From: a virus
Lineage: Duplodnaviria > Caudoviricetes
Reading direction: 5' to 3' (one strand)
IMG/VR virus record: IMGVR_UViG_3300028048_001801
Coordinates: 1 to 64,000 of that record
Length of the DNA: 64,000 bases
Shown here: piece after piece, positions 10,643-51,192 of the stretch
Position numbering within the stretch: the first letter of the stretch is position 1
Layout: each line of letters starts with the position of its first letter
Notes under the pieces: generated by a model
Told to the model about the DNA's origin: nothing
Databases searched by the model: none
What the model saw: the letters and a program-made list of their open reading frames with translations, nothing else
Made by a program: the position numbers and the translations under genes

Positions 10643-10735
10643 AATATATTTAACCTCCTTTTCTTTTAATATAAATACAATCATAGGCGGGGCGGAGGTC
10701 GTCCCCCCGCCGTTATAATGATTGCTTAATTTTAA

Positions 10736-11422
10736 TTATTCATTACTGGATTCAGTATACTGAATCACATCTCCGTTTTTCTGATATACGTTACCGTTCA
10801 CGTAAACATTACCTGTAAGATATATTGTGCCGCCTTCAACAGTAACAGTCGTTTCTTCTGTAGAAGAATCAATGCTGAGCGTTATGGTTGCATTCCCAAG
10901 TTTGATCTTTTGGACCGTTATGTCTCCCTCTACGGCGATGTCGCCTGTAAAAGTTCCACCTGCTTTGGGCATAAACTTTTCGTCTGCTTGCGCCGCAGTG
11001 TAATATTCAGACAAGTCTATTTCAGTACTTCCAACTTCTTCCCATGAATCATTTATGTATAAATATTCTTTGTATCCCGTGCCTGAAGTTTGAGGTATTA
11101 AATAAATAATACCCTTTTTCCCCGTTTCGGGTAATTCTGAAACGATTTGAAGATCAAATTCTGTAATAGAGGCCACAGCGTCATTTGTATATTGTTTTGA
11201 GGCTTCCAATACATCATCGGCTATCTGATCTATTTCATCAGAATTATAGGTGCCCTTACCGTTAATTAATAAAGTGCCTTCCCCGTTATCTTTGATTATA
11301 ACCGTACCTATTTGTACCGATACCGTCTTTTCATCGTTTGTCCCAACTTGGAACTCCTGCGTATCGTCCCCCATAGAACCAATGACATTTAACGATAAAA
11401 CGGGTTTCTTAACATCTCCCAT
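10736..11422 (-). CDS. Minor tail / fibre-associated protein
   Basis: IVSELPETG..GIIYL and GGTFTGDI motifs, common in tail fibre proteins; follows the tape measure gene. Confidence 0.55.
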   Translation of the reverse strand: MGDVKKPVLSLNVIGSMGDDTQEFQVGTNDEKTVSVQIGTVIIKDNGEGTLLINGKGTYNSDEIDQIADDVLEASKQYTNDAVASITEFDLQIVSELPETGKKGIIYLIPQTSGTGYKEYLYINDSWEEVGSTEIDLSEYYTAAQADEKFMPKAGGTFTGDIAVEGDITVQKIKLGNATITLSIDSSTEETTVTVEGGTIYLTGNVYVNGNVYQKNGDVIQYTESSNE

Positions 11423-11446
11423 AATTTTCTCCTTATTTTATTTATT

Positions 11447-11478
11447 TCGTCGCGGATTCGTTTTTAAATCCGCGACGA
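11447..11478. terminator. Perfect 12-bp inverted repeat after the tape measure gene (terminator or processing hairpin)
   Basis: TCGTCGCGGATT...AATCCGCGACGA. No clear U-tract on the minus strand. Confidence 0.45.
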
Positions 11479-11499
11479 TTATGTTATAAAAGAACTCTT

Positions 11500-14400
11500 T
11501 TATTTGTTGTTATGACGAGTTATAGCCATATATTGCCTTGCTTCGGCCAAAAGTTTATTGAAATTAAAATCACTATCCGCATTTACAGTAATATTAAGGT
11601 CATTTACATGCATCGAATTGTCTTCAGTTGAATTGAAACGATTCGCTTCGGTTTTGATCGTAGACAAACCCTTAATGAGATTCGGAGATAATTCGCCAAG
11701 TTGATAAAGGTTCTTAGTAAGATCTGCTGGGACTATACCTGTATGTGCAGGGAGAGCTGTTATGGTGCCTTGCGGGGTTACAATGCCCTCGGTACCGAGC
11801 TCATTGATAAGAGATGTCTGATTAAAGTCCCCTATATCATAAGCACCGCCCATATAGCCAGTTTGAGCAACAAGCCTCTTCCACTCACCACTCCGTTTGA
11901 TCGCATAACTATCTTCTGCTTTTATTGACCCTCCTTTGGCGTCGGGAACCGCTCCAAAGAAAACCACCGTTCCATCTGGTAAAGATTGAAATTCGTCATA
12001 CGAAACCGACCTATATTTGGCACCAGGTTTTCCTGCACTATCAGTAAAAGACGTAACTTCCATTACTAGGTCACTTCCCGGGTTTTTGTCAAACCCTTCT
12101 ATAACGTTGTAAGCCGTTGAACTTTTTTCAGATTTTTCTATAAGTCTATAAATTTTGTCCGCATTCCAAATTCCAGTTGTGTTGTTCCTGAGTTTTAGTC
12201 CAACAAACTTCATTACGCTATCAGCTGTGTTTGTTTTGCCTTCTTTCATACTATCTAAGTTGGTCAAATCATCTTTTGAAAGTTTATTCATTGTGTTGCC
12301 CAAAACATCTTTTTCTATATTTTCTATTTCATCGCTCGAAACACCCATGGTTTGTAAGTCGTTTTTAATCTTTAAATAATTATTATAAGCCGTATTTTGA
12401 GCTTGTTGTTGTGCAATATATTTTGAAGTAGTTTCTTGTCCTGACATATTGCTCATATTAGAACCCGCATCTCGTATTTTAGTAAGCTCTTCTTTAAGTT
12501 CGGCTTTTTTATTATTTCTATCTTGTGTTGCGAAGGATTCCATTGTTGAAATATATTCTCCCCAATCTATTGTTTTTGATTCGCCGCCACCGAATAAATT
12601 TAAAATACTCCCGATACCATCAATACCGCCAACACTTGTTTCTATTGATTCTAGATAACTATCATATTTCTCAACAGCTTTTTTGATAGCTGCCAATTCC
12701 TCATTTTTAGAAATATTATCTAATATGCTATTTTGCTGTTCCAATAAATCAATTTGATATTGTAAATTTTCCTTCTGCGTTTCTCTTTCCAAATTTTCAA
12801 TATTTTCTTTCGCTTCTCGAATAGATTCTTCGTTAGCCTCATATGTCCAACCAACCCCAAATCGATATACGCGTCTTTTTTCTTTTTTTGCATTTTCCAA
12901 AGCCTCTTTAGCTTTGATTAATTCCAATTCTTTTTTTCGTTGTTCATTTATATCCGACAACGCATCAATTTGAGTTTTGAAATTTTCAATAGTGGCTTCA
13001 TTTTCGCGCTTTCTTGAATCAATAATAAGATCCTGCAATTCTTTATAATAATTATTCTCTATCTTTAAGTCATTTAAAAATTTTATTAAAATTTTCTGTA
13101 GATTTTCATTATTATTAAACAAAACCTCTACTTCGTTTAAGCTTTCAGCACCTATCAACGCACTAAAATCATCTTCGGTCAAACCAAGGTTATCTTTACC
13201 TTCTTGCTTTATATACTCCTGAAGAGTTTTATAAGTAGATTTATTCTCTTTTAAAGAATTAAATGTCGCTCTTTCATACAAAAATGCTTGAGTAGATTGT
13301 AAATTTTGCGACCCGAACAATTGGGCAAATAAATTTTCATATACGTTTTCTTTACTAGTCGAAACTAATTTGCCGTTTTCATCATATTTATTATACAAAT
13401 CGAAATATTGGTCGTTTATTTTTTCTAAAATTTCTCCGCTCAACTTGCCCTTGCTAGACAATTCATTAAATATTGAAATTAGTTCACTATAAGATTCTCT
13501 TAATTCTTTTGGAGATTTCATCAAATCGGATAGAGTTATTGATCCTATAACGTTCTTAAAAGACATTGCGCTTTCTGTTGACATCTTCATAGCATTGGTA
13601 AAGTTTTCTAATTCTTTATCATCTAACAAATAAATATCTTCTCTCAATTTTTCCAACGCGTTGTCTAAACTCTCATCTCCATAAAATGATTTGGCAAGTT
13701 TTTCAAGAGCCTCTCGTCCTCCTTCTGTAAGAGAACCAATGTGATCCATTGTAAAACGGATCTCATCATATGTTTTATATTGCCCTTCAGAAATATCGTT
13801 GATTTTTTTTGCAAAATCTTCTTGACGTGTTTGTAAATATATCAAATTATTAAAAGTTTTACTCGAACCAGTAAACAATTTATTAAATTCCCCATCTGCT
13901 CTTAAAAACGTTTCTATTTGTTGTCTGGCCGAATCCGTTAGTTCTCCTGACAAATCTCTAACGTTCATTCCTGTGAGCGTTAAGTTATCCGCAAATTTTT
14001 GTACTGCGAATTCCAATGTAGAATTTGATACATCAACAGCTGACCACATAGCTAACCCCGATTTCATAAAAGCAGATTTTAATTCATCTTGCCACAAATC
14101 TCTATTAAGCTTCGTTATTGCGGCTTGGCTACTCTTATATGTGTCTACGGCATTTTTCAATCCAGATAAAATATTTTCATTCCTTTTATTTTGTTCAATA
14201 ACCCCAGAAATAAATCCTTTTTCTATCCGTTCGATTGCCTCTACAGCTGATTCTATTTTTGCTTCAGTAGTATCACCTTTCAAAACCGCGAGACCATATG
14301 TATGCCCATTTCCCGCGTCTGTTATACTTGTTTTAAATGTATCTCCTAGTTGCTTATATATCTCACCTGTAAAGAAATCAACACCTCCATAACGGCCCTC

Positions 14401-16002
14401 TTCTGCTGAATAACGATTATTGGTGGCTTTTAACGCATCCTCTATCTTTTTTTCATAAGATTTTCTTTCTTCTTCTTGTGTTTTATACTTTTCAATAGCG
14501 GTTTCTTCGGCTGTATAGTTTTCAACAACATTTAAAATTTGTCGTTTTTGATCATCATTATCCCCTAAAAGAATTCTTTCTAATTCCTCTAAGTTATGAT
14601 TCATAATATTAGAAAAATTTTCTGCCGTAAGATCAGTGAAACCAGTGTCCTCTATTTTAATAAGTTCATTAAAGAGTTTTTGGAAGTCATCAAAATTTTC
14701 AGATAACGTTGAAATTAATTCATCAACATTTTTTTTGGCATCTGCAACCTTTTCTGCGGTCGTCAAATCATAAACCGCCGATTCTACTTCTTTGGTTGCG
14801 TTTTTAATTTTATTCAATGCCTCAAGTTGCTTCTTTGCATCCTCAACACGTTGTTTTATTGAAATTTCCTCAGAATGCCTTAGCCATTTAAATAAGCCAC
14901 CTATACCATCACCGATTATGGGGCCAAGCACTGGCCCTAAAATCGGACCAATGCCAGGTATTGCAGTTAGTAATCCTGTTGCCGCGCCTGTTGCAACACC
15001 GTTAATAAAGTTATCGGTCGTATCAGATTGGATATCGTTGATTTTAACATCTTTAGAGCCCATGAGGCCGCCAAAGTGAGAGTTGGTCCCAGACATGCCT
15101 GCCTGAATACCAGCGACAGCACCTGTTAACATACCTGTTTTTATTTGATTTTTAATAAGTTGTTTTCTTTGAGCGTTTAAACTTTCTAAAGCCGTAGGGT
15201 CTTCTATCGCTTTCCCTTCGTTATCTACCCATTTTCCCCAGCTTCGAGCGGCATATACCATATTACCATCTTTATCTTTTGCCGCATATCCAAGTCCCAT
15301 TCCCCACCGTCTATTAAAACGATTTTGGTTTGTAAGACGAGTAATTTCTTTTTGGTTGGCTTTTATCTTGCCATGAAAAGTTGTCTGTATATTATCTATG
15401 GTCGTAAGATGTTTTTCATTTTGGGCACCAAGAGCTTTAATTTGCGCTCTATTAGCTACGTTTTGAGCATGTCTGCTTCCAAGATTAAAAAATCCTGGGG
15501 TGGTGATTTTACCACCACTTTCTATTCCCGCTATTTTATTCGCTACTGCTATTAATCTTTCAATATTTGCATTAACTTTAGTAAATCCAGCGCTAATAAT
15601 AGATTTTTTGTCGCTCTCCTGCATGGCCGATCCAGCAAATTGCATATGTTTAATGTTTAAACTATTAGTTAACTTATTTATAGGATTCATAAAACCACCA
15701 AATCCTATCTTATAAGCATTCATCGCTGTCAGCATAGAAGTTAATGAAATGATTATTTTATCAAGATGTTTAACAATCCCTGCAACAACATTGAAAAATC
15801 CTTTGAGAACTTTATTAGAACCAAGTCGCTGTGTAAAGCCCTCCCATGCGTTTTGAACCTTGTTTATGCTAGCTTCAATAGATTCCATTTGAGCTTCATA
15901 TTTTTCCGCAGCAGTTCCCGCTGAGTTGGCTGAAATTTCTTGAGCTTCACGAACTCTATCCCAGTTTGAGAGCATAACAGTAAAGAAGTTTCTTTGACGT
16001 GT
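11500..16002 (-). CDS. Tape measure polyprotein, exon 2 (1500 aa)
   Basis: The reading frame extends upstream of ORF 15975 to TRQRNFFTVMLSNW. Joined to exon 1 it gives AFAG|TRQRNF. Helical/coiled-coil with a GA-rich hydrophobic segment and an INELGTEGIV C-terminus. Confidence 0.88.
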   Translation of the reverse strand, partial: TRQRNFFTVMLSNWDRVREAQEISANSAGTAAEKYEAQMESIEASINKVQNAWEGFTQRLGSNKVLKGFFNVVAGIVKHLDKIIISLTSMLTAMNAYKIGFGGFMNPINKLTNSLNIKHMQFAGSAMQESDKKSIISAGFTKVNANIERLIAVANKIAGIESGGKITTPGFFNLGSRHAQNVANRAQIKALGAQNEKHLTTIDNIQTTFHGKIKANQKEITRLTNQNRFNRRWGMGLGYAAKDKDGNMVYAARSWGKWVDNEGKAIEDPTALESLNAQRKQLIKNQIKTGMLTGAVAGIQAGMSGTNSHFGGLMGSKDVKINDIQSDTTDNFINGVATGAATGLLTAIPGIGPILGPVLGPIIGDGIGGLFKWLRHSEEISIKQRVEDAKKQLEALNKIKNATKEVESAVYDLTTAEKVADAKKNVDELISTLSENFDDFQKLFNELIKIEDTGFTDLTAENFSNIMNHNLEELERILLGDNDDQKRQILNVVENYTAEETAIEKYKTQEEERKSYEKKIEDALKATNNRYSAEEGRYGGVDFFTGEIYKQLGDTFKTSITDAGNGHTYGLAVLKGDTTEAKIESAVEAIERIEKGFISGVIEQNKRNENILSGLKNAVDTYKSSQAAITKLNRDLWQDELKSAFMKSGLAMWSAVDVSNSTLEFAVQKFADNLTLTGMNVRDLSGELTDSARQQIETFLRADGEFNKLFTGSSKTFNNLIYLQTRQEDFAKKINDISEGQYKTYDEIRFTMDHIGSLTEGGREALEKLAKSFYGDESLDNALEKLREDIYLLDDKELENFTNAMKMSTESAMSFKNVIGSITLSDLMKSPKELRESYSELISIFNELSSKGKLSGEILEKINDQYFDLYNKYDENGKLVSTSKENVYENLFAQLFGSQNLQSTQAFLYERATFNSLKENKSTYKTLQEYIKQEGKDNLGLTEDDFSALIGAESLNEVEVLFNNNENLQKILIKFLNDLKIENNYYKELQDLIIDSRKRENEATIENFKTQIDALSDINEQRKKELELIKAKEALENAKKEKRRVYRFGVGWTYEANEESIREAKENIENLERETQKENLQYQIDLLEQQNSILDNISKNEELAAIKKAVEKYDSYLESIETSVGGIDGIGSILNLFGGGESKTIDWGEYISTMESFATQDRNNKKAELKEELTKIRDAGSNMSNMSGQETTSKYIAQQQAQNTAYNNYLKIKNDLQTMGVSSDEIENIEKDVLGNTMNKLSKDDLTNLDSMKEGKTNTADSVMKFVGLKLRNNTTGIWNADKIYRLIEKSEKSSTAYNVIEGFDKNPGSDLVMEVTSFTDSAGKPGAKYRSVSYDEFQSLPDGTVVFFGAVPDAKGGSIKAEDSYAIKRSGEWKRLVAQTGYMGGAYDIGDFNQTSLINELGTEGIVTPQGTITALPAHTGIVPADLTKNLYQLGELSPNLIKGLSTIKTEANRFNSTEDNSMHVNDLNITVNADSDFNFNKLLAEARQYMAITRHNNK

Positions 16003-17768
16003 TTTTTGTATTGTACTGAGTCATAACTTCAGTATGAATTTTAATTATTATAATTTTGTTGTATATATTTTAATGTTTCATCGAGTTTGTTCGGGAAGAA
16101 ATTTGTTACAAATTCGATAAATTGTTGAGGGGTATTATTCCCAAAACCATATAAACTATGGAATTTAATGTGAATATCTTTAGATAAACAGATACCATAT
16201 GGGTGCATTCTTTCTTGTTTTCGATATGCGTTAATAATTTGATTTTTAAACGAGCCATTCTTTTTATTTACGTCTTCAATATCAATTTCTTTTAATCCCA
16301 GATCACGCAAGGTACTTGCTATTATTAAATTTCTAGAAAATAAATGATGAACATCATCAAATTTAGCACCAGTTAAAAAACATTTGTTCTCGCACATTTC
16401 TATCGACTTTTCCCTCCATTGATTGGAGTATTTGTCCAAAAATCTACTGAGATTATGATAATTAGTATCATCATCTGGATCTTGGCGATATAATTTTAAT
16501 TTTCTTCTTACTTCTTTGATGCTTTGAGGCTCTCGGTGTAGAACTTCTCCAATTTCGACGTCTGTCATTTTTTCATAATTCTCTCGAATAAAAGAATAGT
16601 CTTTTTCCGTATATTGATAACCTGGCCCATTCCCTATTAAACCCATTTTTTGTAATTGTAAATTAAGTTGCCTAATATTTCTATTGGGCAATAATTTTAA
16701 AAGCTCTATTCGTTTCATTTTATGATAATTTAATCGTATGACATTTTTTTCTTCCAAAGTCCAACTAAGTCGTTTTTTAACATTAAGTTTTTGTATAATT
16801 GTTAAAATAGAACTTTCGGTTCGATCAAGATTATATTTAAGTATTAACTCTCTAATTGTAGAACATTTTGTATAATTTTTTTGAATTATATCTCTTTCTT
16901 CATCTGTAAACTTTACAAACTTTCTTCTAATACCCAAAAATTTAGCTCGATTTGTAATCTGAATCTCATCATACCCTTCGAATCTAATAATCACTTTATA
17001 CCATGGGGTTACAACATAATTCTCAACAATCCACCTATCATCTTCTTCTGTAAAGTCTCCCCATTTACAAACTTCAGATTTTTTAGCACCTAACGATATA
17101 GCTCTGCCGATAATTTGTTTTTGAGTCAATCCACTAAAATGTGTTTTAATCTCTTCCCACGATGCAGTTAAATAATTATTTTTTAACCACTCATCATCTT
17201 CTTTTGCCGCAATCCTTCCCATTAGCGACAAATCGCGCGTTAAACCAAGCTCCCCCGCAACGCGAGACAACTGTTTTTGATCATACTCTGGGAACATTTT
17301 ATTTAAGGCTTCCCTATCAATTGTGGCACAATTTTCTTTTAACCATTCTATACGCTTTTCTTCCATAAAATATTCCCTCTTTTAAATTTTTAATATATTT
17401 AAGGTATATATCAACCCTTTACAACAAAATTATAAATTAATTCACTTATTCTTTCAAATAAGAATAGACCATTTTTTAACCCACACCATCATGTGTTTCG
17501 GGCTATACCTTTTCCATTTAAGGGATTCTCACCCACGCCATACATTTGCGCCGTACTCCTGTAGTCTCTCGACCCCTTCGGGGATGGTCGTTGAACGTTC
17601 CACATATTTTAAAAAACTTAGTGGCTTCGCTGCATGATCTGCCAATCCTTTTGTTTTAAAACCATCATAATCTGGTTTCCCGATTATTGTGGTAAAAGGC
17701 TCTAAGGCTTTACCTGCAATTAAATATATTCTTTAACATATATTTCTATATGTTCAGGCACACATTTT
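16003..17768 (-). mobile_element. Group I intron (1766 nt) in the tape measure gene, carrying an HNH homing endonuclease
   Basis: P1 CAGGU/GCCUG has a U-G pair at the 5' splice site. P10 AUGUGU pairs with exon ACACGU. Core elements: AAUUGCAGGUAAAGCC, GAUCAUGCAGCGAAGC, R GUUCAACGACCAU, S AAAAAAUGGUCU, P9 CUUAUU/AAUAAG. Removal restores the frame. Confidence 0.92.
16041..17366 (-). CDS. Intron-encoded HNH homing endonuclease with N-terminal Myb/SANT-like repeats
   Basis: C-terminal CFLTG...DVHHL...GICLSKDIHIKFHSLYG.GNNT, and repeated (W/F/Y)TxEExxxIxxNY units. Lies 3' of intron P7/P9. Confidence 0.8.
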   Translation of the reverse strand: MEEKRIEWLKENCATIDREALNKMFPEYDQKQLSRVAGELGLTRDLSLMGRIAAKEDDEWLKNNYLTASWEEIKTHFSGLTQKQIIGRAISLGAKKSEVCKWGDFTEEDDRWIVENYVVTPWYKVIIRFEGYDEIQITNRAKFLGIRRKFVKFTDEERDIIQKNYTKCSTIRELILKYNLDRTESSILTIIQKLNVKKRLSWTLEEKNVIRLNYHKMKRIELLKLLPNRNIRQLNLQLQKMGLIGNGPGYQYTEKDYSFIRENYEKMTDVEIGEVLHREPQSIKEVRRKLKLYRQDPDDDTNYHNLSRFLDKYSNQWREKSIEMCENKCFLTGAKFDDVHHLFSRNLIIASTLRDLGLKEIDIEDVNKKNGSFKNQIINAYRKQERMHPYGICLSKDIHIKFHSLYGFGNNTPQQFIEFVTNFFPNKLDETLKYIQQNYNN

Positions 17769-20700
17769 ACCTGCAAACGCGGTTGCGACTGCGCTTTGTT
17801 CAACGGAACTTAAAGTGTTCCACTTTTTCGCCAATTCATCAAGAACTTCTCCCATATCACGCATTTCCATTTTGGAATTACGAATGCTTATTCCCAATAC
17901 ACCTAAAACTTTTTCAATATCGTTTATCTTCTCAAGGTCTTCGCCTTCAGTCATCATAGACACGAACGAGCCAGCTTTAACATTGCCGTACCTAGACAAA
18001 ATACTTCTGACTGCGGTACCTGCCATTTCAGCAGATTGCTGAGTAACATCCATAATAGTGGTAACCATCGCTGCAGTTTCATCGAGGGATAATCCCATTT
18101 GAGAGGCAATCGCCGATGTCCTTGCCATAGCTTCACCGATTTCACCAGCGGAGGCCGCATAGTTCATATCAAGCTTCGTGAGTTTGTCGACAACCGTACT
18201 CGCTTCGCTAGCTTGCATTTTGAAACCTTTTAATGTTGATGTTAAAACTTTTGTCGCAGAGTTCATATCAAGCATACCGAGCTTGGATAATTGAGTCGTC
18301 GCAGTAATTAAATCCATAGACTCGCTTATAGAATAACCCTGTCTCAGCCATTCGTTTGCCGATTGCGCCAAAGCAGTGGTAGTGGTTCCTAACTCTTCTG
18401 CTAATTTATTATAGCTTAAAATTGCGTTATCAACTTCTTGCCTATTCATACCTGTAACAATACGAATATTCGTTGCTGCTTTATCGAGCTCTTTTGTTAT
18501 ATTGACAATTTTCTGGAATTCTTGTCTTAGTTTACCCAATACCCTATATAAACTAAAATATTGCGTAATCTGTCTAAGAATACTGTCCTTACTCCAACCC
18601 ATTTGATTCCAAACGGATTGTTTCTGTTGGCCACCGCCAGCACCACCGGCAGCTTTGCGAGCCATTTCATCAAGCTTGAGTTGATGCTCTGCTTTATAAT
18701 ATGATAAAAGATCGTTTTTATTACTTTCATTCTTTACATTTTTTTCGGCTTCTTCTCGTGCCTTTGTAGCAACTTCTAAGTTTTTGTTCTCTAAAGTGTT
18801 TAAATCGTCTAATGCTTTTAACGCGTCTGGATTATTGGCATATTTCGCCCTTTCTTTATCAAGTTCTAAAAGCTTAAGTTTTATAGCATATTCTTTTTTA
18901 AGAGCCTCTTCATATGCCTCTTCGGCCGCTTTTTCATCTTCTTCGGCTTGTTTTTCTTCTATTTTTTTTCTAGCGTTTGGGTCTATTCCGGTTTCTCCAG
19001 CAATGGTAGATTCCACGAATCTATCTGTAACAAAATGATGGTCTTCTTCATCAATTGCCGAGACGTTATATTTGCCAGAATCAATAGTTTCTAAGAGGAC
19101 GCGTTTGAAGTTCGGGTCGTTTAATAATTGTTCTATATCAGCTCTACGCGTTACGAATTGCCCCGTTTTTTGATTATAAGACTGGACAGCAGCGGTTATC
19201 GCAACGTTCTCTTGCGTAAGTTGTTTGAACAGACTTTCGTCGATGTCCATCCCTATATCTTTTAATGGATTTTGAGCCCCATTAAATTTAGCAAAGTCAT
19301 TTTCTGTGTACCCGTGTTCTTTTATATAATCTCTGGCTTGTTTCAAATAATAAGCATACAACACCGGTTGCATTGCTTCTTTTGCTGTGAGGTTGGTGTT
19401 ATTTTTGGTTTTTATATCTTGTACTTCAATAGTAGCCATATTTTCATCGTCTACAAATTGATGTAATTCAGAATCCCATCTTTTGCCACCATAACTGCCA
19501 ACTATAGTATCGGCCCTGCCGTGTTGCGCGTGCCCAATAACGCCTGCAAGATTCACTTCGGATTGAACGAATCCGCCCTTTTCGTTTTGACTAGCCCTAA
19601 TTCTAGAACCTCTATTAAGTGACTCTCCCGCATAAGTAGCATTAGTAATACTTGCTTCTTTAGCTGACAAGTACGCAGACTCGTCAACAGATTGTTTTTT
19701 AATATTGGCTTCCGCTTCGCTTATTAAATGGAAGATACCGTGCTCGTGAGTTTCTTTGTTTTCTTCTGCCCAAAATTTTTCCCAGAGTTGTTTTGCGGCA
19801 TCGTTAGTTTCTTTTTCTTTTTCTAACCACGCCTTCATTCCTTCATAAGTGTCTCCGGCGTATCCTATGTCTTGAGCTTCGCCTATGGCCGCTTTAACTC
19901 CGTGCGCTACATTACCAAAAATCATAGCGCCTTCAGAGTCTGCATAACGTTTATATGCTTCGTCACCATATAGAGACATTAAATATTTGCCAGCGTATTC
20001 ACCGCTAAACTCTTGACGTGCGTTTCTAAACCCCGTTAAATCAGGGAATTCACCACCGCCAAAAGCGTTTCTTATCATTGTTGTTACACTTGGGTTGTAA
20101 ACATTTTCGCCCTTAGCTTTTTGCTCCGCAAGCCAATGTGCTTTATCTAGTTGTTTTGTCGCATCTTTTAAATCTTTTAGCTTTTGAATATTTTCACTGT
20201 AAGCCTCGCCTTCTTTTTTTGCTACGCTAATCTTATATTTTTCTGCTTCAGCCTCGCTATAAATAGCATCCTCTAGTCTTTCGGTGGCGTCGGCAAGAGT
20301 GTTTACGGTCTCCGTGTTTTCGCCAATTTTTTTACCGTACTGAGATGTATATCTATCCCAATAATTTCCAGGATCAGTCTCTCCGCCATGCCCAGTTCTA
20401 CTCCACGTCCTCCATTGATATGTTTTGGGATCTGCTCCGCGGGCGACCATTTGTTCCTGGGTTGATTTTACAGCATTCGCTACAACGTCTGATGAAAAGC
20501 GGCCATAATCCTCGGCTTTGCCATGAACTATAGCCTCATAATTTGGTCCTAATAATTCTTTTAGTATTTTATCTCCGTGTGAAAAACCTTGTATAGCAGA
20601 CATTGTTACGGCCGAAATACGAGAATCTAAGACCTCATCTTGTCCAAAAATTTTAAGACGGGTCATTTCTTCAAAAAGTTTGTTTAAATCCCCTGTCTTT

Positions 20701-23700
20701 GCCAAAATATCAAAAGCATTGCCAGCCCCACTAAAAAGTTCCGCTATTTTTTTATTTCCCTCTTCTTCGGATATTTCTCCATTTTGAACCAATAATTTAA
20801 TAGCATGTTTTGCAGAAATCATGTTCTGCTCAATACCCTCAAGCATATTTCTGGTTATCATGGATTTGGCCGCTTGAAGTTGTCCTTCATATGAATTTCC
20901 CACAGAAATATTGCTTAAACCTGTGGCGTCTATCATATTACTAATGGCGGTACTCATGTTGGACGTCATACCAACCTGACTCTTAAAATGTTTAGCAAAT
21001 AAAGCTGTTACCTCTTGTAAGTCTTGTTTTTCGCGTAGGGAAAAAGCCTTTTCATCCAAACCAAGCTCGCCCATCTTTTTTACACGATCGGCGGCTAAAC
21101 GTGGCGCTGCTCTTAAATAAATCTCGTTTTGTTTGTCTGTGAAAGCTCTGCTTTCTTCTGGATCCGTAAAAATTAATGGATTTAAAAACGCCGAAATAGT
21201 ATCGCTATCGAAATCCATGTTTGAAGCAATACGCTGCGCAAAAATGCCTGTAAATTCAGTGTCGTTTAAATCTGCATCTTGATTGATGAACCATTGCATG
21301 CCACGCATATCCATTCGATTGGTAAGCGGCCAACGCAATATGTCTCCCGCAGCACCACGAACTCGCATTCTTTTTAACAACGAATTATATTTCGCTTGGT
21401 CTAAAACTCCATTTTTATCAGTGGCTTGTCGTCTAACTTCTTCGTCTATCCATTCTTGCAGTTTTATAAAACGTTCGCTTCGTAACGTGATATAATTTGC
21501 TATTCTGTTTTCAAGCTGTTGAACACCTTTAATCCCTTCGAGTGTTTTGTCATCTATAAGTTCATCTCGTCCAAAGGTTAACTCTTTTAAATAATTCTTA
21601 TAATATTGTATTTTAGAAGCATTATTGCCTAATTCTTTAGTTTTGTCTCTTAAATTTTTTAAAAAAGCATTTCTATTAGTTTGAAATCCAATTGTGTTTA
21701 TATCCCTATATACATTATCTTCGTCGTGCAAAATACCAAAAACATTGACGCCACGTCCGTGAAACTGTTGGGATCCGCTGACAGCGTTTTTATGCCCTAG
21801 CTCATAGTAGTAGCCTCGATCACGAGCGTTTTCTTGCCCAATTAAAAAATCCTCTGCATGTCTTCCAATACTTGCCCTTGCTTGTTCTCTGTCCTCTGGC
21901 TTATTCGGATTGTTAAAAGTTACAATAGCACTCATCAAAGCCGTTAAATCGCCAGAATTCTGAGGAAGAGTGTAAGTTCCATCTTTGTTCTGTCTGATAG
22001 GGATGTTGGGTACATATAATCTATTAACTTTATATTCGTTTCCCTCTCTATCTTTTCTAATTAATGGTGCATTAGAGAGATCAAAATACGCTCCAATATC
22101 GTCAACACTAATATTTGCATCTGGGTTATTATTCTTGATTTCTTTAAGCTTATTTTCTTTAGCAGTTTGTATTTGACCCCAAATTGTTTTGGCAACCAAA
22201 TCAATATTCCTAATTCTACCATCGGCGTCCCATAAACCCTCTACCCCAAGAACACTATCCCATGCTTTTTGTATATCAATATCGTATCCTGGGCCATAAC
22301 CTATCGAAACAGACTGATTTCTTATAATATCATTATCTGTCCCGCTTTGACCAGAAAGTAGAGCTGCGGTTGTTATAGCTTGTTCCGCCATTTCGTATTC
22401 AGCTTGGTTTTCTTCTGATGGCGAATATGCTCTAAATAATTTATTGCCATAATCAGACATACCAATGGCGCCCGCGACTTCTAAAACAGCCTTACGAGCT
22501 TGATCATTAACCTTTGCATTTTTACGCGGATTAATTGGTAATGTTTCCAAAACATTCATAGTTGCATAGCGCAATCTTGTGTTTATTTTAGTTTTATATT
22601 CATCAAGATCTGAAAAATCATTAAAATCTATTAGACTAAACATATTACCAAATGCCGATTTGATTTTTTCCACATCCGCTTTTTTTGCATTTTTAGATAA
22701 CTTGAAGCCGCCCTTTTTACCTAAAACTAATAAATCTGCTAAGTCTCCTGCTCCATTATCTCTTAAATACTGGATAAAACCCTCTCTCCATTTGCTAGTG
22801 TCTTCTCCGTTTAACTCTGCTGGAAGCACGTATGTTTTTTTATAATCTTCAATAAGAATTGGTAACTTCTCGTTGATCGCCATCGCCAAGTCATTATATC
22901 CAATAGTACTGCCGCCAATAAAAGCTCCAACATGGTATCTGTCTATGTCTTCATCTTTGACACTATCGGGTATACCAAACATACTTCTAATAATTTGTCT
23001 AGCATAAGCCCTGGAAATTCCAACAGCTTGAGTTCTTCTTGCGCCTATAGCAATCTTAGTGTTTTCATCCATAAAAGATAGGTAATCAAACTTAACGCTT
23101 GTCAATCCGCTTTGATTATCTCTTTTAACCATTAAGTTTCTACTGGTTTTTTTATCAAACAGATGAGAATATTCCTTCTCTAAAATTTCTTCAACAGCAC
23201 TCTTTCTTTTTTGGTCAGTGTTTTCATTCTCCCACTTTTCAATAAAAGCTTTTCTCGATTCTAATTGACGTTCAGCCGATTTAATTTCTTTGGCCATCTC
23301 ATCTCTTATGGTTGGATCCACCTGCTGTTCCATATCGTCTTTCAGATCTTGAAGTTCTTTTTCTTGTTGTGAAATATGATTTTTATACAAATTATATATT
23401 TGTTCTCTGCGCTTAACTCTTTCGTCAATTTGATCGTTGGAAATATCTACCGTTTTATTAATATAACTTGTCAACTCCTCGGACATTTCCTCTGTAACCA
23501 CGAGTGACTGGTCATCATCTACAGAAGCGGCAACATACCCAAACTCTTTATAAAAATCAGCTTCTATGCTTTCTAATTTTTTAATTTCTTCTCTAAGGAC
23601 TTGTTTATCTTTTTTGTTAGTTGTTTTTGCTAACTTTTCGCGTAATTCTTTTAATTTTGGTTCGGCCTTTTTTTTTGCCTCTTCCATTTTGGCTTTGCCC

Positions 23701-25298
23701 GCTCGCCATGCTTTTTGTAAAATTTGATCATCGGTTTCCATTACCGGATAACGTTGGTGTTCGGGGCCCGATTGAATAACTTTGTCACTTTGCCCCATTA
23801 GTTCGTTAACAAAACCTTTTTTGGGGGTATTTACCTTTTTAGCCGTTTTAGCAGTTTGAATTACTTTACGCAACATTGCGGAAAGCTCTGCGCCAAAAAA
23901 TGCTTGACTATTATCTATGAGCCCAACTACCTGCCTCGACAAAGCCTCTTCAGAATTTGCCTCAAAAGATAGATCAAAATCAGAAACAAGTTTATCTATT
24001 AAGGGTTCTATTTCTTCAAATACCCCGCTATGGACAAGTTCAGCCATGTCTGAGGACTTAAGTAATTCTTGTTTGAGCTCCGCACTTACGTTTAGAGCTT
24101 TTATATAAATAGCCCTCATTATTTGCATTTCTAACGTATTTTGATTTCTACCATTGTTTCCTTTTCCTTTTTTGGCCAATTTGTCAAATCGTGTAAAAAG
24201 CTGTTTAATCCATGTGTGGAGATTGACATTATTAGCCTTAAAAAAAGTTTGTATTGCAGAAGAAGTACCATATTCGTCTTTGTCAAGATTATATTTATTG
24301 GTGTTTAATACGGCAGCTTTATCCATTACGCCTGTCTTAAGATTGTCCGCCTTCCATTTGGCCAATCCTCTATCTTTTCCAAACTCCTCAAATAACCTAT
24401 CAGAGGCATCTGCAAAATCAGATAAATATTCCTGTGGTAATGTTATTAATTTGTTATTACCACTATTGTCCATATATGCAGAATAAGTAGCCGCCTTTTT
24501 ATTTCCGTGTTCTACAAAATAACCATTTTTAACAGGGAAATAATCTATTTCAATCAAGTCTTTTGTATATTCTTTTGGGATTCTTAATTCTCCCTTTTTA
24601 TTTGCAACCTTATGCGCTTCCAATTCTGCTTTGGGAACAAAGTAATATTTATTAGAGTCTCTCCCAGAACCCCTGACGATTACGCCACCGTGTTTGCGTG
24701 CATTGTCTTGTATTTTTTTAAAAGCAGCGTCAATACTTTTTTTATCTAAGCTATTTGGGTTTGTTGAAGGGCTAACTTTTTTTGCCGCCTTAGATGGTGT
24801 TGTTTTGTGACGTGTGGAACTTTTAGCGTATTTAACAGACGCTTCTATCTGTTTGGATGAAAAACTTTTATTCTGCACCTCTTCAATTGTTTGAATCGTC
24901 TTATTTCCTATATGTGCTATATTTGAAAAGGCTTCTTTAAATAAATGTTGTATTTCTCTTGGATTTCCTGAACTTTCTCTATCGTTTTTGAGACGTTTTA
25001 ATTTATCCTCTATCCCATCTCCAAAATCTTTCAAATAATCTCTAATTAACACATTAATAATTTCATTTACTTGTTTTGGGTCTTCAATTGGCGTCGTAGA
25101 ATTATTTACAGCTTGGGCTATTCCTGTTTTTATATCATTTAAGATTGGGATATATTCTTTAATGGAATCGCCTAAAGCCGCTATACCTTTATCATTGGTG
25201 TTACCTTTGTTATATTTCTCCAATCTTTCAATTTTATCTAATAAGTCTTTCTCCTTAACGAGGTCCATTAATGATTGCAATCTTTTATTATAAGCCAT
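17769..25298 (-). CDS. Tape measure polyprotein, exon 1 (2510 aa): RNAP-like region, PD-(D/E)XK nuclease and TP901-type tape-measure core
   Basis: R1322-W-P...N1360-M-DFDSD; GRADTI...EVQDIKT...QPVLYAYYL; ELDKAATNIRIVTG...WLRQG...VVDKLTKLD...AGTAVRSILSRY tape-measure core. Confidence 0.85.
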
Positions 25299-25303
25299 AA
25301 TAT

Positions 25304-25744
25304 TTATCTACCCTCCTTACTAAAATCCTTCCAAAACTCGCTCTTTCCGTCAGAGAAATAATCTTCTAATTTGTTATAGTTTCTCTCATCTAATTCCGTG
25401 AGTTTATTTATATATGAATCTTGTATAAACGGCTTCGTTTCCAAAATGCCGTCAAACAAGTTATTTTCAAATTCAGAATTTTTTATATCCTCGGTTTCTC
25501 TTAAATTCTCTTCGTCATAAAACCAATCGATTTCATCACCATCGTTCTTAGTAATGATAAAAGAATTTAAAAAACCATCAAAGGAGGCATAATTATTAAT
25601 ATCTGAATATACACTATGTGAATTTTCTGTGAATAAAAGTCTTATTTTATCTTCAATTTGTTTTAAAACTTTTGCTTTTTGATACGGTTTTAGCCCGCGT
25701 ATCGCGGCAGACGCCTTTTCTGGGATCTTAAATTTCACAAACAT
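25304..25744 (-). CDS. Hypothetical tail/neck component
   Basis: AAGGAGG precedes ATG 25744, so the track start at 25828 is probably too long. Lies immediately upstream of the tape measure gene. Confidence 0.5.
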   Translation of the reverse strand: MFVKFKIPEKASAAIRGLKPYQKAKVLKQIEDKIRLLFTENSHSVYSDINNYASFDGFLNSFIITKNDGDEIDWFYDEENLRETEDIKNSEFENNLFDGILETKPFIQDSYINKLTELDERNYNKLEDYFSDGKSEFWKDFSKEGR

Positions 25745-25772
25745 AACTATACCTCCTTGTTGTGATTTCAAT

Positions 25773-26420
25773 TTAATCGTTGGAGTCTTCCCCCACGATT
25801 TGCGAAGCCTTAAACGCTTCGTCTTCAATATTGTTTTTAATGGACATTAAAAGCGGATCATTAACCGCTGCTATATTCCCAAGCGCTTTCAGCAGTTCGG
25901 GATTGGTTTCCGTTGTAAACCTCTTAAATTCGTCTGTCAGTCTTTCGATCTGTTCGGGCGATGATATTTCAATATTTTTAGCAAGTTCTTTCAAGTTATC
26001 GAAAGAGATCATCTTTTCTGCCATATGATATAAAACATTATAATCCTTTTCACAGAAAGACATAATATAGTCTGTTAATCCTGACAATTTTAATACGTCA
26101 TAATAAGCTGCGTCTTTATAAAAAGAATCTATATTTGGATCTAGATTCACAACGTAAGCCAATAAACAGTCGAAAAGAATCGCTATTTCATACAGGATCG
26201 ACGCTGTATATGGCATTATTTCTTCATCGCTGCGCATATCTATAATCGTCTTCCTAAGTAAAAGCTCTTTTTGCCCAATTGGCATATAATCTTTTATTAT
26301 AAGCGCCGCTTTCAAATCTTCGAGCGCCTTGGTCTCTTCTTCTCCCTCGGGATTGTTTAACCAATTCACCGCTATAACCAAAAGCTCTTCTATTCTATAA
26401 GTTTTTTGTTCTTCGCCCAT
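25773..26420 (-). CDS. Putative tail assembly chaperone
   Basis: Helical 215-aa ORF with RBS, two genes upstream of the tape measure gene. Function inferred from position only. Confidence 0.4.
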   Translation of the reverse strand: MGEEQKTYRIEELLVIAVNWLNNPEGEEETKALEDLKAALIIKDYMPIGQKELLLRKTIIDMRSDEEIMPYTASILYEIAILFDCLLAYVVNLDPNIDSFYKDAAYYDVLKLSGLTDYIMSFCEKDYNVLYHMAEKMISFDNLKELAKNIEISSPEQIERLTDEFKRFTTETNPELLKALGNIAAVNDPLLMSIKNNIEDEAFKASQIVGEDSND

Positions 26421-26421
26421 T

Positions 26422-27480
26422 TTAATCTCCTTTTAAATCCTTGTTTTTTTCTTCACCATTTTCTTTTTGCTCAGCTCCGAAAACAGCTCTTAGTTGATCA
26501 AGCCCCTGTTCTAGTTGTTGTTCATTAGTGTGGTCATCGTAACGACGAACCATGTCTAAAGACGCCCAACCGACAAGGGTTTGTATATAAGAATCGGAAA
26601 ATCCGTGTTCTTTCATGTATGTAGTAAAGAAATGTCTCGAGCTATGATTATAATAATCGAGATTGGCTATTTTTCCGATTTTATTCGCCCAGCTGTTAAC
26701 CGTTGATACAGCAGCTGGCACGTAGTTTCCATCCTTATAGGTTACAAATAAATATTCACTTTGTATCCCTTTTTCTTTCCGCTCTTCTAACCATAAATTC
26801 AAATAGGGTTGGAATAATTGTACAGCAATATATTTCTTTAACAGTTTTCCCTTTTCACCCTTACCTTTCGTTCTGATTGCGGGCGTTAAGTAAAACATGC
26901 CGTCTAAAACCTTGTTTTTATCCTCAAAGAAAGATAATTTCATCTGAATTGCTTCCGATTTCCTCATACCGCTTGAAACTAATAAAGCAAAATAACAAGC
27001 GATTTGATATTTCTTTTGTTTGACAAGTTCGTCTAAGCATGCTTGCATTTCTTCTTGAGACATTATTGTCTTGTCTCTAACGGGCTCTCTATTAGAAATT
27101 TCTATAACCGATGAAATATTCCTGAATGTTGGATATTCATCATCGAGAACTTTTTCGATATAAGAAGATAAGCTTGATATGCAACTGCGCAGAGTGCTAA
27201 CCCTACTGCTGCTTACCTTCAAATCAGATTGTAACCACAGGCTAAACTTAATCAAGTCTCTTTTCTTAAGATCTACAAAAAATTTATTGTCACATTTTTC
27301 ATATAAATAACAAAAGAAAATTTTTAATTGCTGCTCGTATTGATAACGAGTAGCAGGAGACTTATCGGAAGCTTTGCAGTAATCCAAAAATTCCTTGAGG
27401 AGGTCTTTATTTTGTTTAGAAACCTGTTCCCACTTCGCCTCTGTTACAAGCCCGTCATTATAAACAGTTGATCTTCCCAT
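26422..27480 (-). CDS. Tyrosine recombinase / integrase family protein
   Basis: SGMRKSE (R), KGK, HSSRH, LVGW and RRY match the catalytic R-K-H-R-W/H-Y set. Confidence 0.9.
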   Translation of the reverse strand: MGRSTVYNDGLVTEAKWEQVSKQNKDLLKEFLDYCKASDKSPATRYQYEQQLKIFFCYLYEKCDNKFFVDLKKRDLIKFSLWLQSDLKVSSSRVSTLRSCISSLSSYIEKVLDDEYPTFRNISSVIEISNREPVRDKTIMSQEEMQACLDELVKQKKYQIACYFALLVSSGMRKSEAIQMKLSFFEDKNKVLDGMFYLTPAIRTKGKGEKGKLLKKYIAVQLFQPYLNLWLEERKEKGIQSEYLFVTYKDGNYVPAAVSTVNSWANKIGKIANLDYYNHSSRHFFTTYMKEHGFSDSYIQTLVGWASLDMVRRYDDHTNEQQLEQGLDQLRAVFGAEQKENGEEKNKDLKGD

Positions 27481-34088: not shown

Positions 34089-34769
34089 TTAGTTCTTTTT
34101 AGCAGCTTCCTCTGCTTCACGTTTAAAGTCAAGAGTTGTTCCAGACATGGCACCTCCAGACAATCTGTTTAAAAGTTCTACTTTGTGAATATCTTTGAAA
34201 GCGGGATCTCCTTCCACCACCTTTCTCTTAAAATATTCAATAATAAACTTTTTATGGCCCTCGGCCAATTTATTCCAAAGGTTTTCTAGCTCAATAAGCG
34301 AAAGGCCTCCGAGTTGCTTTATGAAATCCTTACCTATGTAAGAATAATCTTTGAGGCTTTTAAGACCAAACCTGCTAGCTAACTCTTCGCCATCGGCTCC
34401 AAATGCTATAATACCCTTTTCGAAAAACTTTCTGTATTTTCCAGAAATTTCTTCCGCTTGACTTAATGTAAGTAAGCGCTCCTCCCCAAAAACACTCATA
34501 TCAATAGTTGTATTAGACAGTTCTATATGCGTATTTAAGCCCGGGGCTCGTTCAACAAGGTGAACAATTGTTACTTCTTGTAAAAGGCCTTTCGGCATTT
34601 GATAATTTGCCACTCCAGAACCCTTTTCCATAATCATTTTCATAAGAAGCTCATTTTGAGCTTTTAAGGCCGCAAATTCAGCTTTCATGGTTTCAATTTC
34701 ACTATTGTCTTTTTTGGGTGTGTTTTGAACGGTTTTTGTACCGCTATCTTTTTTTGTGTACGATGCCAT
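34089..34769 (-). CDS. Conserved post-capsid protein (226 aa), in frame with the upstream endonuclease
   Basis: Has its own AAAGGAG RBS before ATG 34769 (M478 of the 703-aa ORF). Confidence 0.6.
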   Translation of the reverse strand: MASYTKKDSGTKTVQNTPKKDNSEIETMKAEFAALKAQNELLMKMIMEKGSGVANYQMPKGLLQEVTIVHLVERAPGLNTHIELSNTTIDMSVFGEERLLTLSQAEEISGKYRKFFEKGIIAFGADGEELASRFGLKSLKDYSYIGKDFIKQLGGLSLIELENLWNKLAEGHKKFIIEYFKRKVVEGDPAFKDIHKVELLNRLSGGAMSGTTLDFKREAEEAAKKN

Positions 34770-36200
34770 ATCTTTTATAACTCCTTTTAAATCCTTTTTA
34801 ATTTTAAAAATTCTATAACCACATCCATAAATTATATTTGATTTTTCAAAACAATCTACTTCATTATGGTTTAAAATTTTTATTCTTTTATGATCGGCTA
34901 TAAGATAACCAATCGGTTCACTAATAAAAGTGTTTATAATATTATTATTTAAGAAAAACAGTTCGTCTCCATTAAATTTATCCAATTCGACAGAACAATA
35001 TAACAAGTCAAAATTATAATTAATATAAAAATAACTGAGTAAAAATCGGAAAGCATTCTTAACAGAGATATTAAAACCAGCAAAGCATAAAACACAATAA
35101 TAATTATTGTGATATTTGTTAAATATAATAGAACATATGCGAACGCCACAATTATCAAATAATGACAAAATAACGCCATCTTCAAATGGCGTTTCTTCTA
35201 TATTATTGATATCAAAAAAACTATCGCAAAAATTACCGCAGTGGTATTTAATCAATTCTCGTATTTTTATATTCGTCTTATCATCGCACCACTCGTCTTC
35301 ATATATTTGTATTAGTTTTATATTTTTATATTCGCATTTTTTAAATTTTTGATAATGAAAATCTATTTCTTTTCTCTCCGCTGTATGGAAATACATTCCA
35401 TTGTATTCAATAGCAAGTTTTACTTCTGGTATATAAATATCTAACTCATAAGGATAAATTACAGATTTAGTAGAAAAAGCGTCAAAACCCATACTCCGGA
35501 CAAAATTTAAGACCATTAATTCTCCAACTGAATGACTAGATCTTTTAAGCCAATCTTGTTTTGTTATATTAAACCTTTGAATCGTTCTATCATATGTAGA
35601 TCTACTAATTTTTAAATCTTTTATGATATCACATATTTTAAACAACCCTCTTGTCTTAACATAATTAACAAAATTATCATAAGAACTTAAAATCTCTTTT
35701 GTTCTTTTTTCTACATTAATAGTTGCGTAGTTTTCTACATCGTATCTCTCAAGGGTTGTCTGTTTCCTTTTGGTTAATATATCATTAACGAATTCTGGGT
35801 CTTCTTCTTTGTGTTTGTAATAAGTATCCCATATTTTTCTTTTCACATCGGGATCTTGCGCGCTATATTCATACCCTGTTTTCAACAACGTGGTCTGTTT
35901 AGATTTCTCATTTCTCTCAACCCAATAATTTGGATTTTCTTTCGCATTCTTCGCCACCGTTGTTTTTGCTTTTTCTTTTGCGCCTGGTATCAGTATCGCA
36001 TTGGTTACACCATATTTATCCATAAGTGCTTGTTTTTTATTTTTTAAAACTTGCTCAGGAGATCTTTTAACGCCATATCTCTTCTTGATTGTATATAACA
36101 AAGTTTTGCCAATTTGTAACATTTCACAAATTTTTTTATCAGGATATGTTTCAACTAATTCCGTTAAATATTCTTTGGTTACACCATCTGCCTTCCCCAT
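34089..36200 (-). CDS. Mobile PD-(D/E)XK (Vsr-like) homing endonuclease reading through into the post-capsid gene
   Basis: KYGVTN and ERYDVEN repeats; SVGE...ELDIYIPEVKLAIEYNGMYFH...K...C..K.IKLIQIYEDEW. Confidence 0.75.
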   Translation of the reverse strand: MGKADGVTKEYLTELVETYPDKKICEMLQIGKTLLYTIKKRYGVKRSPEQVLKNKKQALMDKYGVTNAILIPGAKEKAKTTVAKNAKENPNYWVERNEKSKQTTLLKTGYEYSAQDPDVKRKIWDTYYKHKEEDPEFVNDILTKRKQTTLERYDVENYATINVEKRTKEILSSYDNFVNYVKTRGLFKICDIIKDLKISRSTYDRTIQRFNITKQDWLKRSSHSVGELMVLNFVRSMGFDAFSTKSVIYPYELDIYIPEVKLAIEYNGMYFHTAERKEIDFHYQKFKKCEYKNIKLIQIYEDEWCDDKTNIKIRELIKYHCGNFCDSFFDINNIEETPFEDGVILSLFDNCGVRICSIIFNKYHNNYYCVLCFAGFNISVKNAFRFLLSYFYINYNFDLLYCSVELDKFNGDELFFLNNNIINTFISEPIGYLIADHKRIKILNHNEVDCFEKSNIIYGCGYRIFKIKKDLKGVIKDMASYTKKDSGTKTVQNTPKKDNSEIETMKAEFAALKAQNELLMKMIMEKGSGVANYQMPKGLLQEVTIVHLVERAPGLNTHIELSNTTIDMSVFGEERLLTLSQAEEISGKYRKFFEKGIIAFGADGEELASRFGLKSLKDYSYIGKDFIKQLGGLSLIELENLWNKLAEGHKKFIIEYFKRKVVEGDPAFKDIHKVELLNRLSGGAMSGTTLDFKREAEEAAKKN

Positions 36201-50692: not shown

Positions 50693-51192
50693 TCTTTAAT
50701 CTCTTGGACCCAGCTTGGCTTCTTGAAATTTTGTTTATCAATATTCGCCACATTTGTTTCAAATTCGACCCAACAAATTTCAGGCTGATCTTCTGGAATA
50801 TCAACGGTTATAATATATTTATCATAAAAGCTAGAATTGATCTTATCAACCACATAATACCGCTCTTTAACCTGGAGTTTTTCATCTTTATAAAGATTGT
50901 CAAGTAAATCATAATCATGTTTTTCGATATCAGTTGTTATCTCATAATCAACACCCTTCTTTACATGATGTTTGACAGTATGTTCATAAAGCGGTTTGTC
51001 TTTTTGTTTGTTTGCTGGCATTATGTATGTAGTTTCCCTAATCCTACCTGTGTACTTATCACCGTTCATAATCCAGCGCTGTTTGATTTTTAGTATTTTA
51101 TATATTTTAATCTGTCCACCCTGCAGAGCATTTTTGAAAGCGGCTACTTTCATAGTAAACCGCTTTTCGCTCTCAGGAGTAACATCAAACAT
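50689..51192 (-). CDS. CYTH-like triphosphatase domain protein
   Basis: ExExRF (ESEKRF), KERY, VEFE and FKKPSWV. Likely start is ATG 51192, overlapping the RNAP stop. Confidence 0.6.
   Translation of the reverse strand: MFDVTPESEKRFTMKVAAFKNALQGGQIKIYKILKIKQRWIMNGDKYTGRIRETTYIMPANKQKDKPLYEHTVKHHVKKGVDYEITTDIEKHDYDLLDNLYKDEKLQVKERYYVVDKINSSFYDKYIITVDIPEDQPEICWVEFETNVANIDKQNFKKPSWVQEIKE

Follow-up and report, generated by a model that had tools for sequence, protein, structure and literature searches.

A putative RNA polymerase module of the two-barrel type in the tape measure protein of an SPbeta-like cattle-gut phage

Can the tape measure protein (TMP) of an SPbeta-like phage carry an RNA polymerase of its own? 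The question is raised by one very long open reading frame (ORF) in a 64,000-nucleotide stretch of phage DNA, hereafter the window, which comprises positions 1-64,000 of the record IMGVR_UViG_3300028048_001801, a virus genome record of 160 kb in all; near-identical DNA is present in cattle-gut metagenomes of several studies. An earlier note on this DNA had pointed to polymerase-like catalytic motifs in a TMP gene whose spliced product has ~4010 amino acids (aa); the motifs lie in an N-terminal extension of ~2000 aa. Here we report that polymerase-type motifs are present in this protein, are invariant throughout its family, are always fused to a TMP, and show weak, collinear similarity in profile comparisons with YonO, the single-chain RNA polymerase of SPbeta. 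Judged from sequence, it is probable, at roughly 60%, that the N-terminal half of the TMP, with its core at about aa 700-1700, is a single-chain RNA polymerase of the two-barrel type, highly divergent and a distant relative of the YonO/QDE-1-like clade; D1362, D1364 and D1366 would form its Mg-binding triad. The virion RNA polymerase gp96 of Thermus phage P23-45, likewise fused to a TMP, has been proven to be a polymerase by biochemistry and crystallography (Chaban et al. 2024, PMC10770324), and full-text literature searches found no TMP-fused polymerase besides the P23-45 group.

The ORF, the polymerase-like module within it, its five motifs (M1 to M5) and the YonO-like gene of the same phage lie as follows.

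17754-25298, minus strand: motif-bearing ORF, 2514 aa, exon 1 of the TMP gene
20199..23201, minus strand: RNA-polymerase-like module, aa ~700-1700, with motifs M1-M5 and a large insert between two putative barrels, recognised by invariant residues and by hhalign to the YonO family
23004..23066, minus strand: M1, aa 745-765 (ENTKIAIGARRTQ...), candidate first (beta-like) barrel motif, aligning with YonO G-Q-x-R-x(4)-F-I
21288..21356, minus strand: M2, aa 1315-1337 (G..GDILRWPLTNRMD...F), R-x-P strand of the candidate catalytic barrel
21192..21221, minus strand: M3, aa 1360-1369 (NMDFDSDTIS), candidate Mg-binding DxDxD motif
20949..20993, minus strand: M4, aa 1436-1450 (KHFKSQVGMTSNMST), G-x-x-S-N motif, common to YonO G-x-x-[ST]-N
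20802..20852, minus strand: M5, aa 1483-1499 (R..LEGIEQNMISAKHA), within a long helix predicted with confidence
51185-54112, minus strand: YonO-like single-chain RNA polymerase, 975 aa, with DFDGD at 549; phrog_8308; homologues with PF05183

In the candidate catalytic barrel, R1322-W-P is followed 38-40 aa later by N-M-D1362-F-D1364-S-D1366 (aa 1360-1366, nucleotides 21201-21221). An R-x-P strand ~35-45 aa upstream of a DxDxD motif is the equivalent of the beta-prime NRAPTLH strand, and the counterparts of M2, at the same spacing, are DILRSP in SPbeta YonO and FRNP in gp96. Downstream of the triad come KSQVGMTSNMST at aa 1439-1450 and EQNMISAKH at 1490-1498, while DDQSLVVTEEM (595-605) and ENTKIAIG (745-752) lie upstream; all of the strings singled out in the earlier note were found at its coordinates in the translation of 17754-25298 (minus strand) and in the YonO-like ORF. 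The latter has DFDGD at 549 and then GSKVGVYSNHAT and GAEIDSAKG, in an order that matches the TMP motifs, so that the parallel drawn earlier between the two proteins holds. In all frames of at least 80 aa, the 160-kb genome has exactly two occurrences of the composite pattern R-x-P-x(25-60)-x-D-x-D-[GSA]-D, one in the TMP ORF and one in the YonO-like gene; the pattern arises in 11 of 2000 shuffles of the TMP ORF protein (0.55%) and gives 0.06 hits per shuffled proteome. A reading of the DxDxD motif as an EF-hand-like loop was also considered and was rejected, as positions 6, 8 and 12 do not fit.

Homologues are few. A word-indexed search of 5.8 billion proteins yielded 4 relatives, an exhaustive phmmer search with aa 560-1700 against 1.84 billion representatives yielded 3 representatives, two further distant relatives among them, and a search from one distant relative added 6 proteins. 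The family thus stands at 13 proteins, every one of them fused to a TMP and most with a detectable PF10145 tape measure core. Pattern scans found no relatives in IMG/VR, in GTDB genomes or in JGI metagenomes, nor did tblastn and blastn among GenBank phages. Across the 13 proteins, whose identity to the window protein falls to 17-21% over aa 700-1720, just 45 of 2300 aligned positions are invariant, and these include K748, R754, G1315, R1322, P1324, D1330, F1337, D1362, D1364 and D1366, as well as K1439, G1443, S1446, R1483, Q1491, I1494, S1495 and K1497; the motifs G-x-x-S-N and I-S-x-K are thereby present in all 13. All three Asp residues of the triad are invariant, as the reading of M3 as a catalytic motif had led one to look for, in the forms DFDSD (n=5), DNDGD (n=7) and DFDGD (n=1), and the DNDGD variant is the motif of SPbeta-group YonO. 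Known polymerase families have the variants DNDKD, DSDFD and DTDFD. The two upstream strings, which had been put forward with less assurance as a second barrel, fared differently: ENTKIAIG falls in M1, where K748 and R754 are invariant, whereas DDQS is confined to the close subfamily and lies in a region with 40-50% gaps family-wide, and is therefore not part of the conserved core. An additional stretch at aa 150-500 (about 23799-24851) is well conserved, with invariant G204, P222, G265, G344, G469, K478 and Q481, and has no family match.

Profile comparisons were made with hhalign against a YonO profile built from 115 proteins related to the YonO-like protein of the window, PF05183 being present in most, and against a more diverse YonO profile to which SPbeta-group, BUCT082 and Enterocloster PMBT24 sequences had been added. 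With family profiles on both sides, aa 616-800 matched YonO 60-187 (E 9e-4, score 36.5), pairing the K748/R754 segment with G-Q-x-R...F-I; this best profile match to YonO lends support to ENTKIAIG as a candidate second-barrel motif, and every other 400-aa window, as well as the reversed profile, scored at most ~23-28. The diverse profile gave three collinear matches, at M1 (E 0.004-0.03), at R-x-P...DxDxD, i.e. M2-M3 (E 0.005-0.017), and at M4 (E 0.014-0.04), as against E 0.1-0.9 for windows lacking the motifs. Among 18 P values obtained with fixed segments of 120 aa, the lowest three were those of these same three motif regions, in order. Even the single window sequence matched the YonO profile at E 0.045 over 159 columns that span M2-M4. 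For comparison, gp96, a proven polymerase, reached E 0.22-0.33 with the same YonO profile, so that weak scores appear to be normal between true two-barrel families, a point also stated by the authors of the P23-45 study (PMC10770324). By these scores the TMP-fused family looks nearer to YonO than gp96 does. SPbeta-group YonO reads DILRSP...DNDGDK, the window protein DILRWP...DFDSDT, and a sister subfamily has DNDGDK.

Likewise, the remaining weak matches of family members at the motif are to polymerase families. PF00623 (E 0.053; homologue P0016, aa 1320-1354) and LEF-9 (E 0.024; homologue P0011, aa 1201-1251) align exactly there, and the language-model neighbours of the P0016 segment are phage PF00623 (Rpb1-domain-2) clusters with scores of 0.77-0.83, which we take as a lead only. 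A protein-atlas feature search with the window's own segment gave no usable match.

That the module is part of a TMP is clear from the remainder of the gene, which is made up of the following parts.

17769..25298, minus strand: exon 1 of the TMP gene, codons 1-2510, ending ...AFAG; phrog_4211 profile positions 346-840; PF10145 at aa 2297-2510
17769..18410, minus strand: tape measure core PF10145 PhageMin_Tail, aa 2297-2510, its end cut by the intron
19329..19931, minus strand: segment resembling a PD-(D/E)XK nuclease, aa ~1790-1990, with the polymerase-like module on one side and the TMP core on the other
11500..16002, minus strand: exon 2, 1500 aa, beginning TRQRNFF..., the remaining TMP with glycine-rich hydrophobic segments

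The PF10145 match occupies the last ~215 aa of the exon 1 ORF and scores 116 bits against a Pfam gathering cut-off of 33. The TMP families of PHROGs match only from aa ~1994 of this ORF onwards, and the phrog_4211 profile is split between the two exons, with positions 346-840 in the exon 1 ORF and 849-956 at the start of the ORF at 11500-15975. In unsplit homologues (4135-4328 aa) the sequence continues over the gap as ...AFAG-[TV]RQR-N-x-F..., and the corresponding peptide is encoded in the window as ...AFAG (end 17769) plus TRQRNFF (start 16002), for a spliced product of 2510 + 1500 = 4010 aa. Both the extended TMP gene and its expected length are therefore borne out, by PF10145 and by the unsplit homologues. 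In the nuclease-like segment D1961, K1963 and Q1977 are invariant, and the aligned region of homologue P0011 matches PF12705 (E 0.0025). Compared with SPbeta-type TMPs (PF10145, phrog_4211), the C-terminal ~2000 aa of the window protein match the TMP core, running into exon 2, and the gene has neighbours of the YomU/YomW/XepA type; the difference is at the N-terminus, where ~1650 extra residues precede the start of the TMP profile.

Several results weigh against a polymerase and are gathered here. The individual hhalign matches are weak (probability 1-23%), and with the less diverse YonO profile the score of the DxDxD region equals the null. A YonO hidden Markov model run with HMMER on the family members gave no separation from reversed decoys; none of the 13 members has a PF05183 match at E values of 10 or less, and phrog_8308 gave no match; Pfam and PHROGs searches with the window protein returned TMP families only and no significant polymerase match; and neither phmmer nor the family profile found a relevant match in the PDB. 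Of the motifs, M5 has the weakest correspondence, to YonO [IL]-D-x-x-K, aligning only through a Lys, and the Ser at position 4 of the DxDxD motif (DFDSD) is unusual. With only 13 members, covariation is uninformative. Structure prediction does not come to the rescue: AlphaFold2 models of aa 700-1720 (13-row alignment; mean model confidence, pLDDT, 53, with 1313-1447 below 50) and of the compact homologue P0009 (aa 1146-1552, 407 aa, cropped alignment; pLDDT 62.5) show no beta-barrel in the motif region, which is drawn as low-confidence helices (pLDDT ~30-52; 32-52 for the putative barrel in the P0009 model). With Foldseek, both models have nothing in the PDB at E up to 0.001. The downstream helical domain with M5 is better modelled in P0009 (pLDDT 75-91), and VIA matched this helical part to the bridge-helix/trigger-loop part of the largest subunits of plant Pol V (Z 4.9, 147 aa) and Pol IV (Z 4.5, 115 aa), at ranks 3 and 9 of 48,161 chains, with Z values below the tool's stated noise level. 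For the large model, VIA gave single-helix matches only, and an ESM-atlas shape search gave a TM score of at most 0.28. The double-psi beta-barrels that the earlier note had proposed to look for thus did not appear, in models whose pLDDT below 50 at the motifs makes them too poor to count in either direction, and the two-barrel fold is unproven.

What else might the conserved segment be? DxDxD-type motifs occur also in unrelated enzymes, and the acidic cluster might belong to some other metal-dependent enzyme or metal-binding module on the TMP extension, such as another nucleotidyl-transferase or primase-like enzyme, a phosphoesterase or a structural Ca/Mg-binding loop, with the likeness to polymerases limited to short motifs. 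The helices that AlphaFold2 places around the motif, the lack of any significant database profile, and the adjoining nuclease-like domain, which indicates that the extension carries other enzymes too, would all be in keeping with such a module. We regard this explanation as somewhat unlikely, however, as the triad is accompanied by R-x-P at the right distance, by G-x-x-S-N downstream and by G/K...R...F-I some 600 aa upstream, all of them collinear with YonO and invariant. In addition, the sole weak Pfam and language-model neighbours are polymerase families, and the helices are modelled at pLDDT below 50.

If the domain does derive from a polymerase, it may have lost catalysis and now act in the tail or during DNA ejection as a structural or DNA-binding element. 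Such a relic would fit the change of G to S seen in the window's subfamily, the extreme divergence, the ~500-aa inserts between the barrels and the poor model. But all three Asp, with the neighbouring R, P, G, S and K, stay invariant however far the members have diverged, as one would expect if catalysis were under selection, and we hold this loss to be improbable. The resemblance might, finally, be due to chance in an ordinary long helical ruler region, given that TMPs are long and helical and that the models are mostly helical. This we find very hard to credit: the pattern appears in so few shuffles (the 0.55% given above), invariance in 13 homologues is unexpected for ruler segments, and the typical TMP profile starts ~1650 aa later in the protein. 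A divergent two-barrel polymerase remains the reading that we prefer.

The gene is also split by an intron, on whose removal the earlier note had made synthesis of the full-length protein depend.

16003..17768, minus strand: group I intron, 1766 nucleotides (nt), catalytic core 17445-17778; RF00028, 56.2 bits, E 4e-13, gathering cut-off 50
16041..17366, minus strand: intron-borne ORF, 441 aa, with helix-turn-helix (HTH)-like repeats and a C-terminal H-N-H-like motif

The RF00028 call came from a narrow Rfam scan; a wide scan of 10000-27000 missed the intron. The insert was also weighed as a group II intron, a reading rejected because it lacks a domain V/VI and fits the group I model. Past the splice site, the exon 1 ORF continues for 4 codons of intron and stops at a TGA (17754). 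Both splice sites are fixed by base pairing, P1 being CAGGU/GCCUG with a U.G pair at the 5' splice site and P10 being AUGUGU/ACACGU, 6 bp that abut P1. In L005, the closest homologue (78% identity), a 412-nt intron without an ORF occupies this site (Rfam 55 bits); it shows a compensatory P1 change to CGGGU/GCCCG and ends in G (L005:17944). The last base of the window's intron is an A, at 16003, and not the canonical terminal guanosine (omega-G). From its HTH-like repeats and H-N-H-like motif, the intron ORF is likely to be a homing endonuclease.

A cattle-gut metatranscriptome contained one contig, 16065-17756, that covers almost the whole intron at a k-mer depth of 10, versus 2.6-4.1 for exon contigs, and a second run of the same sample gave contigs only inside the intron; no contig with ligated exons was found in it. 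These depths are a weak hint that the excised intron accumulates, with carry-over of DNA as a possible alternative. A genuine group I intron splits the gene, and unsplit homologues exist; that full-length TMP synthesis depends on the removal of 16003-17768 is plausible, but the window's intron has a terminal A and no RNA with joined exons was seen.

Interruptions of the TMP core are frequent in the family. The TMPs of six loci (L005, L009, L010, L011, L013 and L014) are interrupted at at least 4 sites in the PF10145 core, after AFAG/AVAG, EKN, EWL and K-x-LT; the introns of other members lie at three further sites, and Rfam calls group I introns in three of the interrupted members. Homing introns seem to favour the TMP core. 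Elsewhere in the window, a 703-aa ORF (34089-36200, minus strand) with homing/HNH endonuclease PHROG matches lies among the structural genes, so that mobile endonucleases are frequent in this genome. In Clostridium phage c-st (L017, AP008983), the YonO homologue is annotated as two genes, one N-terminal and one C-terminal, that flank an ORF, an arrangement pointing to an intron or another insertion in this polymerase gene as well. A tyrosine-recombinase (Phage_integrase) gene (26422-27480, minus strand) stands 2-3 genes upstream of the TMP gene, within the tail-gene block, an odd place for an integrase; it is kept at that site in most homologous loci (L001, L005-L009 and L011).

The assignment of the phage to the SPbeta-like group, another point of the earlier note, is supported by YomW, YomU and XepA Pfam matches in the homologous loci and by the presence of the YonO homologue. 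The latter shares 28% identity with SPbeta-group YonO and is encoded upstream of the structural genes; it is presumed to be the non-virion polymerase of the phage.

The arrangement is closest in form to that of P23-45. In both phages one giant ORF has an N-terminal two-barrel-type catalytic motif and a C-terminal tape measure, with R-x-P ~40 aa before D-F-D-x-D-T, and a separate non-virion single-chain polymerase is encoded elsewhere. The differences are considerable: gp96 has no detectable sequence similarity to the window family (hhalign E 0.16, away from the motif), its motif is at aa 779 rather than 1362, and in the window protein ~500 aa separate the putative barrels, while its gene also encodes a nuclease-like domain and holds a group I intron. 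Moreover, the window's phage is of an SPbeta-like lineage with a Bacillota-type cattle-gut host instead of Thermus, and its candidate polymerase is described from sequence. With SPbeta YonO and the RdRP (PF05183, QDE-1-like) clade the window family shares the motif order G-Q-x-R...F-I; (D)ILR-x-P; D-N/F-D-G/S-D; G-x-x-[ST]-N; ...K, and one of its subfamilies has the exact DNDGDK of YonO. However, YonO is a free enzyme of ~840-975 aa, and here the module lies inside a 4010-aa structural protein with much longer spacers; YonO transcribes late genes and is not known in virions (PMC5467207). Delivery of a polymerase in the virion within a very large protein would be shared with gp66 of phi14:2, a crAss-like phage, and with N4 vRNAP (PMC10770324), whose carriers are not TMPs; N4 vRNAP, furthermore, is T7-like and not of the two-barrel type.

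By analogy with P23-45 and SPbeta, a path for the protein can be proposed. Group I splicing of 16003-17768 would give the full-length protein. Because the polymerase module is part of the TMP, we infer that it would be built into the tail and would exit the virion with the TMP at infection, and that it would then be placed at the membrane pore formed by the hydrophobic C-terminal half of the TMP. There it could transcribe the first genes on the entering DNA without the host polymerase, and might possibly help to pull the DNA in. Transcription of the late structural operon, to which the TMP gene belongs, would fall to the YonO-like enzyme (51185-54112), as late transcription does to YonO in SPbeta.

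In its full form, the proposal is that cattle-gut SPbeta-like phages have a TMP-fused virion RNA polymerase that is the second of its kind, distinct in evolution from the first, and that arose from, or shares ancestry with, their own YonO-type enzyme. Together the two enzymes would run a host-independent two-polymerase programme, the virion enzyme being injected as one polypeptide with a PD-(D/E)XK nuclease and depending for its synthesis on a group I intron with a non-canonical terminal A. We advance this wider scheme tentatively, as a real possibility that falls short of a probable one.

TMP-fused virion polymerases have so far come from a single group of Thermus phages (2024). If the preferred reading is true, this would be the second such case after P23-45, in an unrelated, temperate-type SPbeta-like lineage, and the coupling of DNA ejection to transcription via the tape measure would be a recurring strategy. 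It would also add a new and very divergent branch beside YonO to the tree of two-barrel polymerases, which bears on the early evolution of these enzymes, and would provide structural work with a compact polymerase that may lack a clamp. For the SPbeta group itself, it would revise the model in which the early genes are read by the host enzyme.

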